Shown: positions 24,187 through 47,334 of the stretch, piece by piece
Layout of the letters: each line of letters begins with the position of its first letter
Numbering within the stretch: position 1 is the first letter of the stretch
From: Escherichia coli
GTDB taxonomy: Bacteria > Pseudomonadota > Gammaproteobacteria > Enterobacterales > Enterobacteriaceae
Assembly (NCBI RefSeq): GCF_046105845.1
Contig: NZ_CP151004.1
DNA length: 64,000 nt
Strand: one strand, 5' to 3'
Program-made: the position numbers and the translations under genes
The notes under the pieces: generated by a model
What the model was told of the DNA's origin: nothing
Database searches by the model: none
Seen by the model: only the letters and a program-made list of their open reading frames with translations

Positions 24187-25602
24187 TTATTTCAGCCCCA
24201 GAGCGGCTTTCATGGTGTAGAAGAGATCGGTCTGGTCGGTCAGTCCAACGACATTGGCAGCATGTGGGCCATACGCTGCAATACGCAACTGACTGCCGGT
24301 ATGTTCTTGTGAATCCTCTTCGGAGTTCCCGTAACTCATCACCATCACTGCGCCATCTTTTGTATTTAGCGCCTGGGTGAGGCCCGGCGCTTTGGTGTCC
24401 GGCGCGACAATCTGGCTGGCGTGGGCGTGATCAGCGGTGACTATGACCAGCGTGTTGCCATCCTTTTTAGCGAATTCCAACGCCCGTTGTACGGCTTCGT
24501 CGAGATCGACCGTCTCGCCAATTTGCCCACAAGGATTCGCAGCGTGATCCTGTTTATCGATTGATGCACCTTCAACTTGCAGGAAAAAGCCTTTCTCATT
24601 TTTACTCAACAATTCAATGGCTTTGTCGGTCATCTGCGCCAGGGTCGGTACGCTGTCATTACGTTGCGGATTAGGCGTACAGGTAACTGCGGGCTTGTCG
24701 ATATTGCCGTGGTACGTTGCTTTCGGTCCTAGCCAGCGCACTGGCATATTGCCGTCAGCAAACAGTCCTAGCAGGGGTTTTTGCTGGTTCGCTTCCGTCA
24801 CCGCATTTAGCGAGGCAGCATCACTCACCAACTGATAACCACGCGCCTGTGCCTGTTCACGCAGCGTTTTTCCCTGCCATTCACCGGCGGTTGCCGTTTC
24901 AGCAAAGGTTTTTGCGCCGCCGCCAAGCGTAACATCGGCACGAGCGTTAAGCAGCTGTTCGGTAATCGATCCTTTCCCGCCTTTTTCTAGCGTGTTACCC
25001 GTACATTTTTCACTGGTCACGCTCGGACCGTAGCATTTGCGCGAGGTCACATGCGACACCAGCGCAGCGGGCGTAGCATCCTGCAACTCTGCGGTAGAAA
25101 CGTTACCGGTCGCCAGACCTGCGGCTTTTGCCATTTCCAGAATCGTTGGGTGATCTTTTTCGTGAATATCGACGCCCAGCGCGCCGTTATAGGTTTTGAC
25201 ACCAGTTGACCAAGCGGTTGCTGATGCAGCCGAGTCGGTGACGTAGTCCGGTTTGCCGGTTTTTTTATTCAGCGCATAGTGAGTGTATTGCCCGGTAAGC
25301 GGTAATGCATCGATACCTTTAAAAAAGCCGCCCGCACCTTCGGCATAATTGCGTGCAGCAGTAATTTCCGAGTCCCCCATCCCATCGCCAATCAACAAAA
25401 TAATATTTTTGGCAGGTTTATCGCTAAGAGAATCACGCAGAGCAGCGGTCTGATCCCCCGTTAAGCGGCGAGCACCGCCGGGTGCAGTAATATCGCCCTG
25501 AGCAGCCCGGTTTTCCAGAACAGGCATTTCTGGTGTCCGGGCTTTTGTCACAGGGGTAAACAGTAACGGTAAGAGTGCCAGTGCAATAGTGCTTTGTTTC
25601 AC
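24187..25602 (-). CDS. phoA: Alkaline phosphatase PhoA
   Basis: ORF 24187..25644; GTG at 25602 with GGAG Shine-Dalgarno gives [29 protein letters not shown]..., the classic PhoA signal peptide and mature N-terminus. Confidence 0.96.
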
Positions 25603-25664
25603 TTTATTTTCTCCATGTACAAATACATTAAAAAATAAAAACAAAGCGACTATAAGTCTCGGCC

Positions 25665-25682
25665 GTGACAGCTTTATGACAG
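25665..25682 (-). promoter_or_regulatory. Pho box of the phoA promoter
   Basis: Minus-strand ctgtcataaagctgtcac, ~60 nt upstream of phoA start; matches the known phoA Pho box apart from one base. Confidence 0.75.
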
Positions 25683-25702
25683 CTGTTGAAAAGATTAACT
25701 TT

Positions 25703-25963
25703 TTACTGACGAGGATGCTTCAATAACTTCTTTACATAATTGCGCAGCAGCTCCGTATCGTCGTCAGGAATGCTGGCATCGGGCTTTACCTCGTACAGCG
25801 CCCCCTCTACCTGATCAATCAACCTCTGTTGGTCATTTTGCGCCATATTGCGAAGCATTGCAGTGACGATAATCTCCAAAGCTTCTACCTGCGCGCACAG
25901 TTCTTTCGACTCTTCTTCTTTTTGGGCAAGCTTAAATAACAACTCAGCAATGAGATTTTTCAT
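25703..25963 (-). CDS. iraP: Anti-adapter protein IraP (inhibits RssB-mediated RpoS degradation)
   Basis: 86 aa, [40 protein letters not shown]...; matches recalled IraP (YaiB). Confidence 0.92.
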
Positions 25964-26424
25964 GTCTGTATTTCCTTATCCAAAGTATGGAGAAGTTAAC
26001 ATTATGTTTCACAACTTCATAGTGTCTGGAAGTATTATTTTTATGACAAAGGAAATACTTTGCGCAAATATTTTTTGTTTGATTACCAGCGAAACGTTTC
26101 TCTTATTTAAATAATTACCCTCACAAAATATAGGCTTTTAATTATCAACCTTTATTATAAATAAAAGTTATGAAATATATTCTCTTCGTTAACTTATAAT
26201 TAAGAGAAAAAACTCACTGCATGGCCATTTAAGCCAGGAATAAATTAGCTTCCCGTTCATCATTTTTGTGATCTTGCGCACATCATTGAGATAACGCACT
26301 TTCTTCACCAGTACGTTGCACGCTTTGTCAGCAGAAGATTGCAACATTCTGTCAGAAGGCCGCGAATCCCCCGTTTTGTCGTGGTAATGTATGCACTTTG
26401 TGTTAGACGGGATAGGTTTTTAAG

Positions 26425-32217: not shown

Positions 32218-35892
<3,675 letters not shown>

Positions 35893-36414
35893 TTGTCATC
35901 CCTCCTCAGGGACGTAATAAGTTGATCCATCAATTATCAATGCATAGAAAACATATTATGTTTCGCGCTAACGATTATGCTGCGTTACAGACGAATGGTT
36001 CAATTATTCTTTCCCCTAAGTCCGAATGTGGACATATATAATTTATGGAGAAAAATACACACCGAATTGATAAAAACACCATATTTCAATATGTTGCAGA
36101 TAATGTTATTTTTGAAACATACGCATCATAAATATCACAAACACAAACCAGACAAACATCCTATCAATATGCAACAAAGTTTTAATTATTCAATTTATAG
36201 CAGCAAAACCAAACCCCAAAAATAATAACCAAGAACTATAAATAAAAATTAAAAATATTTTCAGTGAATATGAAATTATTGCTGTTTCTATTACAAAGAT
36301 GTCCTGGCCTCTCTTCCATTCTCTTCTTGTCAACATCGCGACAACTTTCGTAAAACATCCCCACCCTGCTTCAGGTATACTATGCCCCTCGATTCCACAA
36401 ACATCAGGCAGACC

Positions 36415-37389
36415 ATGACAGACTTAATCCAACGCCCTCGTCGCCTGCGCAAATCTCCTGCGCTGCGCGCTATGTTTGAAGAGACAACACTTAGCCTTAA
36501 CGACCTGGTGTTGCCGATCTTTGTTGAAGAAGAAATTGACGACTACAAAGCCGTTGAAGCCATGCCAGGCGTGATGCGCATTCCAGAGAAACATCTGGCA
36601 CGCGAAATTGAACGCATCGCCAACGCCGGTATTCGTTCCGTGATGACTTTCGGCATCTCTCACCATACCGATGAAACCGGCAGCGACGCCTGGCGGGAAG
36701 ATGGACTGGTGGCGCGTATGTCGCGCATATGCAAGCAGACTGTGCCAGAAATGATCGTCATGTCAGACACTTGTTTCTGTGAATACACTTCTCACGGTCA
36801 CTGCGGTGTGCTGTGCGAGCATGGCGTCGACAACGACGCGACTCTGGAAAATTTAGGCAAGCAAGCCGTGGTTGCAGCTGCTGCAGGTGCAGACTTCATC
36901 GCCCCTTCCGCCGCGATGGACGGCCAGGTACAGGCGATTCGTCAGGCGCTGGACGCTGCGGGCTTTAAAGATACGGCGATTATGTCGTATTCGACCAAGT
37001 TCGCCTCTTCCTTTTATGGTCCGTTCCGTGAAGCTGCCGGAAGCGCATTAAAAGGCGACCGCAAAAGCTATCAGATGAACCCGATGAACCGCCGCGAAGC
37101 GATTCGTGAATCACTGCTGGATGAAGCCCAGGGCGCAGACTGCCTGATGGTTAAACCAGCTGGAGCGTACCTCGACATCGTGCGTGAGCTGCGTGAACGT
37201 ACTGAATTGCCGATTGGTGCGTATCAGGTGAGCGGTGAGTACGCGATGATTAAGTTCGCCGCGCTGGCGGGTGCTATAGATGAAGAGAAAGTCGTGCTCG
37301 AAAGCTTAGGTTCGATTAAGCGTGCGGGTGCGGATCTGATTTTCAGCTACTTTGCGCTGGATCTGGCTGAGAAGAAGATTCTGCGTTAA
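36415..37389 (+). CDS. hemB: Porphobilinogen synthase (delta-aminolevulinate dehydratase) HemB
   Basis: ORF 36382..37389; ATG at 36415 gives [27 protein letters not shown]..., the known 324-aa HemB. Confidence 0.95.
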
Positions 37390-37429
37390 TGATCATTATG
37401 CCGGGTTATCCCAACCCGGCATTTCCTCT

Positions 37430-39881: not shown

Positions 39882-40844
39882 TTATTGCACGAAGCGCGAG
39901 GTCACGTACTGGCTGTAATCATTCGCTACAGCCGGGACTTTGCCCTGCTCTTTCAAAAACTGCGCGGTGTCGATGATCGCTTTGTTCACCGGTCCGGTCA
40001 GTTCTGCCGTTTGCTGCTGCGGCGTCAGATAGGTATTCCCCTTCACCAGCCCCGGAACGTCACCTTCAGGTACGCCGCTTAAACGCGCCAGCTTGCTGAT
40101 GTTTTCCGGCTGTTTCAGCCACGCGTCTGGGTTAGCAATGTACGGTTGCTGAGCATCGATGGCGCTTTTAGCGAACGCTTTCACGACCTCTGGATGTTTC
40201 TCGGCAAAATCTTTGCGCACCACCCAGACGTCCAGCGTCGGCGCACCCCACTGCCCGACCTGTTCAGAATCGGTCAGCACCTTGCCGTCTTTTTCCAGGG
40301 CGTTAACCGCCGGTGCCCAGACATAAGCACCATCAATGTCTCCCCGTTGCCATGCGGCGATAATCGCGGGTGGCTGCAGGTTCACTATCTCCACTTGTCC
40401 GGGTTTTATACCCCAGTGTTTCAGCGCCGCCAGCAGGCTGTAGTGGGTGGTGGAGATAAACGGTACGGCGATGCGTTTGCCAATGAGATCTTCCGGTTTG
40501 CTGATAGTTTTCTTTACCACCAGCGCTTCGGAGTTACCCAGTTTTGACGCCAGTAAGAAGACTTCAATCGGCACCTGTTGGCTGGCTGCCACCGCTAATG
40601 GGCTGGAACCGAGGTTACCGATTTGGACATCGCCTGAAGCCAGCGCCCGCACGATGCTGGCTCCGCTGTCAAACTTACGCCAGTCCACCGTCGCCCCGCT
40701 CTCTTTAGCAAAGGTGTTATCAGCCTGAGCCACTTTCGCCGGTTCAGCGGAGGTTTGATAGGCCACGGTGACGTTCACCGCCTGTGCCTGAAAAGCGATG
40801 AATGCCAGTGCGGCAAGAAGTGTGTTACGCGATGAAATTGCCAT
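39882..40844 (-). CDS. tauA: Taurine ABC transporter periplasmic binding protein TauA
   Basis: 320 aa with signal peptide MAISSRNTLLAALAFIAFQAQA. Confidence 0.94.
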   Translation of the reverse strand: MAISSRNTLLAALAFIAFQAQAVNVTVAYQTSAEPAKVAQADNTFAKESGATVDWRKFDSGASIVRALASGDVQIGNLGSSPLAVAASQQVPIEVFLLASKLGNSEALVVKKTISKPEDLIGKRIAVPFISTTHYSLLAALKHWGIKPGQVEIVNLQPPAIIAAWQRGDIDGAYVWAPAVNALEKDGKVLTDSEQVGQWGAPTLDVWVVRKDFAEKHPEVVKAFAKSAIDAQQPYIANPDAWLKQPENISKLARLSGVPEGDVPGLVKGNTYLTPQQQTAELTGPVNKAIIDTAQFLKEQGKVPAVANDYSQYVTSRFVQ

Positions 40845-41450
40845 GATTGTCTGCTCCCCTGTCTTGTTATGGGAGCAGTATTCGCGGACAAAAGAATTTG
40901 ATAAAAGAATTAATCATTATGGGCAATACGTTTTTATTCTTAGCAAAAAAATGGCAAACGATAGATTAGTTATGCATGTATCTACCATGTTAAGACTTAG
41001 TAAGCTGTGATTCAGCATGGATGTGAATAAATAATCAAATAGTTCGTTTTCTTATTTACCATTGACCACATGAATGAATAGATGAGCCATCAAGAAACCA
41101 TTCAGATTTTATATAAAACAGCCCTCATACAATGTCAGTATTTTATATATCATTCACTTAATGAATAAATATAAAATAGTTCACAAAGATATTTTTTAAA
41201 TGCAATTAATTGACAAACTAAATCACATCTAAATACAATATATAAAACAAAATTACCATGTATGCTAAGCAAACAAACATTTAACATATGATATACATAA
41301 ATAAAATCTGTCTCCCTAAAGCCCCGTAGGTTATTAAATAACCATTATTTTTAAGGGTTATTTTTTTTAACAGTATGCTTTTTTAGCATCTGAGGATGTT
41401 GCAGTTGGCTACTGTTCTGCGTTCGCCAGGTTTTCTGCATAATAATTAAA

Positions 41451-42137
41451 ATGGAGTGTCATGAATTGGATAAGGTTTTAACTTCTGCGTTGCATTCTTC
41501 CGAGAAAAAGAGGAAAGGTATCCTTGCGATTGGCGCACATCCTGACGATATAGAATTAGGTTGTGGCGCATCGCTTGCTCGACTTGCGAAAAAGGGAATT
41601 TATATCGCAGCCGTTGTCATGACTTCCGGTGATTCTGGTGTAAATGATATTATTGACCGCCATGAAGAATCACGCGAAGCATTAATGATGTTGGGTTGCG
41701 CGCAAACAATACATCTTAATTTTGCCGACACTCGTACCCATTTGCAGCTCAATGATATGATTTCCGCCCTGGAAGACATCATTAAAAATCAAATTCCTTC
41801 TGATGTTGAAATCATGCGGGTATATACCATGCATGATGCCGACCGCCATCAGGATCATCTTGCTGTTTATCAAGCTTCAATGGTTGCCTGCCGAACTATT
41901 CCACAAATTCTCGGCTACGAAACCCCAAGCACCTGGCTTTCATTTATGCCTCAGGTTTTTGAATCCGTTAAAGAAGAATATTTCACAGTCAAACTTGCTG
42001 CATTAAAAAAACATAAAAGCCAGGAACGACGCGATTATATGCGTCATGATCGCCTGCGTGCAGTTGCACAATTTCGCGGGCAACAGGTCAATAGCGATCT
42101 GGGTGAAGGCTTTGTAATTCATAAAATGATTCTTTGA
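41451..42137 (+). CDS. yaiS: PIG-L/LmbE-family deacetylase YaiS; exact start uncertain
   Basis: AHPDD(x)E(x)GCG motif (ILAIGAHPDDIELGCGAS) typical of LmbE-like N-acetylglucosaminyl deacetylases; the 228-aa ORF may over-extend the 5' end relative to the shorter K-12 annotation. Confidence 0.8.
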   Translation: MECHELDKVLTSALHSSEKKRKGILAIGAHPDDIELGCGASLARLAKKGIYIAAVVMTSGDSGVNDIIDRHEESREALMMLGCAQTIHLNFADTRTHLQLNDMISALEDIIKNQIPSDVEIMRVYTMHDADRHQDHLAVYQASMVACRTIPQILGYETPSTWLSFMPQVFESVKEEYFTVKLAALKKHKSQERRDYMRHDRLRAVAQFRGQQVNSDLGEGFVIHKMIL

Positions 42138-47209: not shown

Positions 47210-47235
47210 TAATAGTGCACGACTGCCGGATGCGG

Positions 47236-47323
47236 CGTAAACGCCTTATCCGGTCTACGGGTGGCGCGGGAATTTGTAGGCCTGATAAGACGCGTCAGCG
47301 TCGCATCAGGCATCTGCGCACGA
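47236..47323. repeat. BIME (two REP units) downstream of frmB
   Basis: tgccggatgcggcgtaaacgccttatccggtctac and aggcctgataagacgcgtcagcgtcgcatcaggca. Confidence 0.75.
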
Positions 47324-47334
47324 CTTATCTATGT

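Follow-up and report, generated by a model that had tools for sequence, protein, structure and literature searches.

A common, consensus-matching base in the phoA Pho box of Escherichia coli that differs from the K-12 allele

Does the Pho box upstream of phoA in this E. coli DNA really differ from that of K-12, and would the difference alter how PhoB reads the site? The sequence-only reading of the window (the whole 64-kb stretch of DNA analyzed here) had claimed that the box departs by one base from the K-12 sequence, had described this as a strain polymorphism inside a well-characterized activator site that could slightly tune phoA induction, and had named direct alignment to K-12 as the check. 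The box, CTGTCATAAAGCTGTCAC, occurs a single time in the window, at positions 25665 to 25682 on the minus strand (its plus-strand reading is gtgacagctttatgacag), and 100 dinucleotide-preserving shuffles gave no match to it with up to two mismatches permitted. Alignment of the minus strand of window positions 25560 to 25990 with MG1655 (NC_000913.3) returned CTGTCATAAAGTTGTCAC as the K-12 box. The sequences are not identical: one T/C difference separates them, as had been claimed, and the K-12 box assumed in that reading proved correct, since the T form stands in the reference genome and is also printed in three papers (PMC3465305, PMC8601176, and PMC10294691). The variant base lies at position 25671 (G on the plus strand and C on the phoA strand, where K-12 has T, at position 401678 of NC_000913.3). 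Within the box it is position 12, where the downstream 7-mer begins, directly 5' of the second TGTCA tract. It is the sole difference from K-12 in the 100-nt spacer between iraP and phoA (99 of 100 bases identical); the full 431-base alignment holds five differences, this one included. The identity of the site, the reality of the difference, and the population frequency given below are direct observations.

Read along the minus strand, the locus runs from iraP (25963 to 25703, assigned by alignment with K-12 iraP) across the 20 nt that separate its stop codon from the box (25682 to 25665), then through the 10 nt GGCCGAGACT to the -10 hexamer TATAGT (25654 to 25649), the Shine-Dalgarno sequence GGAG (25614 to 25611, identical to K-12), and the GTG start codon of phoA at 25602. 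The box lies 80 nt upstream of this GTG, and its center is 71.5 nt upstream of the start codon, the same distance as is listed for the K-12 box (PMC3465305). The coding sequence (24187 to 25602, minus strand) specifies a 471-residue alkaline phosphatase that is identical to K-12 PhoA at 465 of 471 positions, and psiF follows it, as in K-12. The six residue differences from K-12 are A183S, A195V, P201T, and A204T, which cluster between residues 183 and 204, plus S267A and E381D; the exact window protein is widespread in public assemblies (641 index blocks).

The box has the organization of a PhoB site. Two direct 7-bp CTGTCAT-like repeats, CTGTCAT and CTGTCAC, stand in an 11-bp register on either side of an A/T-rich 4-bp gap (AAAG), with both TGTCA tracts intact. 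Together they occupy the -35 location of a promoter without a -35 consensus. No -35 hexamer is present, and a sigma-70 promoter scan called no -35/-10 pair for phoA, an absence that is expected because the promoter is PhoB dependent and the box replaces the -35 element; TATAGT itself is invariant across the aligned Escherichia species. When the site is extended to the 22-bp footprint defined in earlier work (PMC4447250), it spans 25661 to 25682 on the minus strand and comprises the 11-bp repeats CTGTCATAAAG and CTGTCACGGCC. The last four bases of the footprint, GGCC, form the G/C-rich minor-groove segment to which the low affinity of this site has been attributed (PMC4447250), and they are unchanged between the window and K-12.

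The orthologous K-12 box is bound by PhoB in ChIP-chip (PMC3465305) and ChIP-seq (PMC10294691, with a peak at 401676 of NC_000913.3) experiments, and binding of PhoB~P has been observed by EMSA (PMC4447250). Given the 99 spacer bases shared with this experimentally bound site, the window element is assigned, by orthology, as the PhoB-binding site of the phoA promoter. Its cognate activator is encoded in the window as well: phoB (9630 to 10319, minus strand), adjacent to phoR, specifies a PhoB with a conserved DNA-binding domain that is identical to the K-12 protein at all 229 of 229 residues, so the difference between the two strains acts, if at all, purely in cis. A scan of the window for the Pho box consensus, with up to three mismatches permitted, gave 4 matches where 0.25 was expected, among them the phoA box (one mismatch) and two overlapping boxes in the phoB promoter (10372 to 10400, minus strand; TTTTCATAAATCTGTCATAAATCTGACGC), whose sequence is as published for phoB (PMC3465305, PMC10294691). 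Rfam and tandem-repeat scans across the whole window found nothing.

Comparison with the published consensus, CTGTCAT-A(AT)A(TA)-CTGT(CA)A(CT) (PMC3465305), ranks the window allele above that of K-12. The window allele agrees with it at 17 of 18 positions, G11 being the sole miss, versus 16 of 18 for K-12. By this measure it is K-12, and not the window, that departs from the consensus at position 12, where C yields the 7-mer CTGTCAC and fits CTGT(C/A)A(C/T). With C in place, both half-sites carry the perfect 8-bp repeat AGCTGTCA in the 11-bp register.

To place the two alleles within the species, we counted them among 5,426 complete RefSeq E. coli genomes, the phoA region being present in 5,418 to 5,420 of these. 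In the final counts, made with a shifted 31-mer that avoids polymorphic flank sites, 616 genomes (11.4%) carry C, 4,746 (87.5%) carry T, and some 56 could be assigned to neither. A more restrictive 31-mer centered on the SNP gave 565 and 4,668, respectively; polymorphism in the flank just 3' of the box kept about 187 others out of both classes. Strains named ST69 and ST70 are among those with C, as is IAI39, whereas K-12, CFT073, and O157:H7 have T; the reference strains with C are of phylogroups D and F and those with T of A, B2, and E. At least three 3' flanks (GGCCGAG, GGCTGAG, and GGCCCAG) accompany the C allele, which is therefore not confined to one haplotype. These counts, together with the K-12 alignment, support the description of the base as a strain polymorphism inside a well-characterized PhoB activator site, a description that needs refining on four points: the box lies on the minus strand, K-12 is the strain off consensus at position 12, the C allele is common and probably ancestral, not private, and a change in affinity, judged from engineered phoA boxes, shifts onset and expression at low PhoB~P but leaves the fully induced level as it was (PMC4447250). 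The C allele is plainly visible in hundreds of public genomes and is an ordinary, common allele of a known element. In the literature searched, no paper contains the C-allele 18-mer, and a keyword search on natural variation in this box gave nothing relevant.

Further natural polymorphisms lie directly 3' of the box (window positions 25655 to 25664 and their homologs), in or beside the 22-bp footprint. Flank variants at these positions include GGCCAAG in ECONIH1, GGCTGAG in MS 57-2, and GGCCCAG in GCA_949767255.1. The C-to-T change in GGCTGAG raises the A/T content of the segment tied to affinity in PMC4447250. The IAI39 genome is inverted in the phoA region.

Which of the two bases came first was addressed by an outgroup survey, in which a PhoA protein scan with one genome per species returned 80 loci. 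Of five non-coli Escherichia representatives, four have C at position 12, namely E. albertii, E. whittamii, and two entries that bear the E. coli label but are just 90 to 92% identical to the window and were counted as non-coli. The fifth, Escherichia sp. E1V33, has T. Because C is found in four of five other Escherichia and has a D/F distribution within the species, C is probably the ancestral state and T the derived majority allele; recombination at the locus and the independent T in E1V33 keep this polarity from being certain. At a greater distance, the recognizable orthologous phoA boxes of 67 enterobacterial species have C in 30, T in 17, G in 13, and A in 7 at this position, while their TGTCA tracts are almost invariant.

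The same position is weakly constrained across the regulon. In the 59 motif-bearing sites of the ChIP-seq table (PMC10294691), position 12 is C in 29, A in 13, T in 13, and G in 4, which amounts to 0.27 bits; in the other regulated promoter sites, it is C in seven of nine. Weight matrices, the scores of which are a rough proxy only for binding energy, were built from the site tables of both the ChIP-chip (PMC3465305) and the ChIP-seq (PMC10294691) studies. We relied on the latter because its authors argue that many of the ChIP-chip peaks are not genuine (PMC10294691). With phoA left out, the ChIP-seq matrix assigns +0.98 to C and -0.26 to T at position 12, a preference of about 1.2 bits for C, and the score of the phoA box rises from 19.4 bits with the K-12 T to 20.6 bits with C (pstS, 23.3 bits; phoB, 21.3 bits). 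The noisier ChIP-chip matrix favors C over T by 0.4 bits only.

What such a preference might mean for expression can be gauged from engineered promoters. The K-12 phoA box binds PhoB with low affinity (Kd of 0.59 uM by EMSA), and phoA boxes engineered to have 2- to 5-fold higher affinity advanced onset by up to about 5 min and were more active at low PhoB~P, while all variants reached the same level at the wild-type PhoB concentration (PMC4447250). Reading the approximately 1.2-bit preference against these boxes, we infer both the direction and the size of the effect: a modest gain. A slight tuning of phoA induction by position 12, as had been suggested from the sequence, is thus plausible. 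The effect of C versus T could also be nil because position 12 is among the least informative positions of the motif. Conceivably, the change from T to C could even lower affinity, and the sign of the effect is not certain, since the base adjoins the A/T-rich minor-groove segment, in which A/T pairs raise PhoB affinity (PMC4447250).

The reading that we favor, with a probability of roughly 0.85, is that the phoA Pho box of the window holds a common, probably ancestral, consensus-matching C allele, that regulation is qualitatively as in K-12, and that the affinity for PhoB would be modestly raised. The qualitative equivalence is expected because nothing has changed in either TGTCA tract, the spacing, TATAGT, or PhoB. 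In this mechanism, the box stands in for a -35 element, with 10 nt between it and TATAGT. Upon phosphate starvation, a phosphorylated PhoB dimer would occupy the two direct TGTCA-containing repeats and recruit sigma-70 RNA polymerase. With C at position 12, the affinity for PhoB~P would increase by about 2-fold at most, such that phoA might be switched on slightly earlier and be expressed somewhat more strongly at subsaturating PhoB~P, with full induction unchanged.

Nearly as likely as a small effect, and a little short of even odds, is that the base is a strictly neutral lineage marker, with C and T tracking ancestry and recombination at the phoA locus without measurable consequence. The low information content of position 12 and the occurrence of all four bases among orthologous enterobacterial boxes are in keeping with neutrality, as is the spacer as a whole, where one difference in 100 nt does not exceed the approximately 2% background divergence from K-12; moreover, full induction stays the same even when affinity is altered 5-fold (PMC4447250). 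The preference for C in bound sites (29 of 59, and seven of nine regulated promoters), where it is also the classical consensus base, argues the other way, and small changes in affinity measurably shifted onset (PMC4447250). At the opposite pole, the T of most E. coli, or the C of D/F-type lineages, may have been selected to reposition phoA temporally within the Pho regulon. The distribution of the allele has phylogenetic structure, with C in ST69/ST70 strains and IAI39 but T in K-12, CFT073, and O157; T recurs independently in Escherichia sp. E1V33, and box affinity correlates with onset timing (PMC4447250). However, a neutral marker would show the same phylogenetic structure, the haplotypes of the phoA region are mosaic, and the predicted effect is small. 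We regard such adaptive tuning as possible but unsupported, and improbable. The broader proposition, a functional cis-regulatory polymorphism that would bring alkaline phosphatase earlier in D/F-type and related lineages and later in A/B1/B2/E, with the derived T favored in the lineages that dominate sequenced E. coli, appears just as doubtful.

Two explanations that bypass PhoB fare worse. Sigma-70 promoters have the -35 consensus TTGACA and need a spacing of 16 to 18 nt. Read directly from the sequence, TTGTCA in the K-12 box matches this hexamer at five of six positions and the C allele reduces the match to four, so that the base could alter basal, PhoB-independent transcription. Yet TTGTCA lies just 11 nt from TATAGT, no -10-like hexamer occurs 16 to 18 nt downstream of it, and the promoter scan calls nothing here; we rejected a -35-like role on this spacing and consider it very unlikely. 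Action at the level of RNA, through the conversion of a G-U into a G-C pair in a 6-bp hairpin (CAGCUG...AGCUGU) of any iraP read-through transcript, is scarcely credible. The minimum free energies predicted are -19.6 kcal/mol (window) and -17.2 kcal/mol (K-12), with an identical hairpin in both, but neither fold beats shuffled sequence (z scores of -1.5 and -0.9, respectively), on which ground the role was rejected. In addition, no terminator-like site was detected on the minus strand, and the phoA transcript should lack the hairpin segment because its start is expected downstream of the -10 hexamer. Finally, we give virtually no credence to an error, whether in the sequencing or assembly of the window or in the K-12 sequence assumed for comparison. 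The former is excluded because the identical allele is carried by 616 complete genomes, as well as by further draft assemblies, and the latter by NC_000913.3 and the three papers that print T.

Other observations concern the window at large. Measured over positions 4001 to 34000, it is approximately 98% identical to K-12 versus 88 to 92% to other Escherichia species and belongs to E. coli proper, about equidistant (98.1 to 98.6%) from K-12, CFT073, ST70, and IAI39. The 5,426 complete genomes yielded no close relative (best, 98.1% over 24 kb), and two draft assemblies, GCA_949767255.1 and GCA_011751345.1, are closer (99.1 to 99.4% over 7.4 kb); the lineage of the window may be deep or rarely sequenced. 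Between acpH and malZ lies a 1.6-kb islet (1541 to 3128) that is not in K-12, occurs at 90 to 97% identity in 1,127 of the 5,426 genomes, and is annotated as hypothetical. Its open reading frame (1807 to 2943, minus strand) specifies a 378-residue protein with a subthreshold match to the EspG Pfam model (E value of 0.03; 13 bits versus a cutoff of 25), and IAI39 has a hypothetical gene at the same location. The queA-acpH intergenic stretch (735 to 956) gave no K-12 alignment at the blastn threshold used, while the flanking genes are 95 to 97.5% identical. A yaiT/ehaB-type autotransporter gene (34387 to 37390) is uninterrupted, whereas the K-12 copy has an IS3 insertion; it is 83% identical to K-12 versus 99.3% to strain ET474 over the stretch from 34 to 36 kb, a divergence that we read as a mosaic or allelic-replacement pattern. 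Positions of approximately 40000 to 42000, on the yaiS/yaiP side of tauA, are 86 to 93% identical to every reference compared, versus a background of about 98%. One copy of an approximately 109-bp intergenic unit is present at 47217 to 47325, where the K-12 mhpE-mhpT spacer has four to five tandem copies, and copies related to this unit occur in the mak-araJ spacer; a search of the whole window gave no tandem arrays.

The phoA Pho box is among the best-studied of activator sites, and a natural allele of it is of little importance in itself. The K-12 phoA promoter is, however, widely used in reporters, biosensors, and expression vectors. The promoter of these constructs carries a nonconsensus base, and the natural C might be worth trying as a slightly more sensitive variant. 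As a natural single-base variant, it also offers a simple probe of whether variation in box affinity within a species alters the timing order of the Pho regulon, for which it is useful because, in K-12, phoA has a low-affinity box and comes on late among the genes of the regulon.

Set against known systems, the closest counterpart of the window box is that of K-12, which is orthologous, is placed identically with respect to iraP, TATAGT, and the phoA start, shares 17 of 18 box bases, and differs by the T at position 12. The boxes of E. albertii (CTGTCATAAAGCTGTCAT) and E. whittamii (TTGTCATAATGCTGTCAT) agree with the window in the C at position 12, the -10 hexamer, and the spacing; differences from it fall at positions 1, 10, and/or 18 and in the flanking bases. 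The pstS box (CTGTCATAAAACTGTCAT), a perfect-consensus site of high occupancy, shares with the window phoA box both C-initial 7-mers, the TGTCA tracts, and the 11-bp register. Unlike the pstS box, that of phoA has G at position 11 and the GGCC extension tied to low affinity (PMC4447250), and its matrix score is 20.6 versus 23.3 bits. In the engineered promoters phoA*Mid and phoA*Hi (Gao & Stock 2015, PMC4447250), the promoter is the same and variation is confined to the PhoB site; they illustrate how affinity, the time of onset, and activity at low PhoB~P depend on the box. By comparison, the natural allele exchanges one base, C for T, at the repeat boundary, and its gain in affinity is a predicted one.
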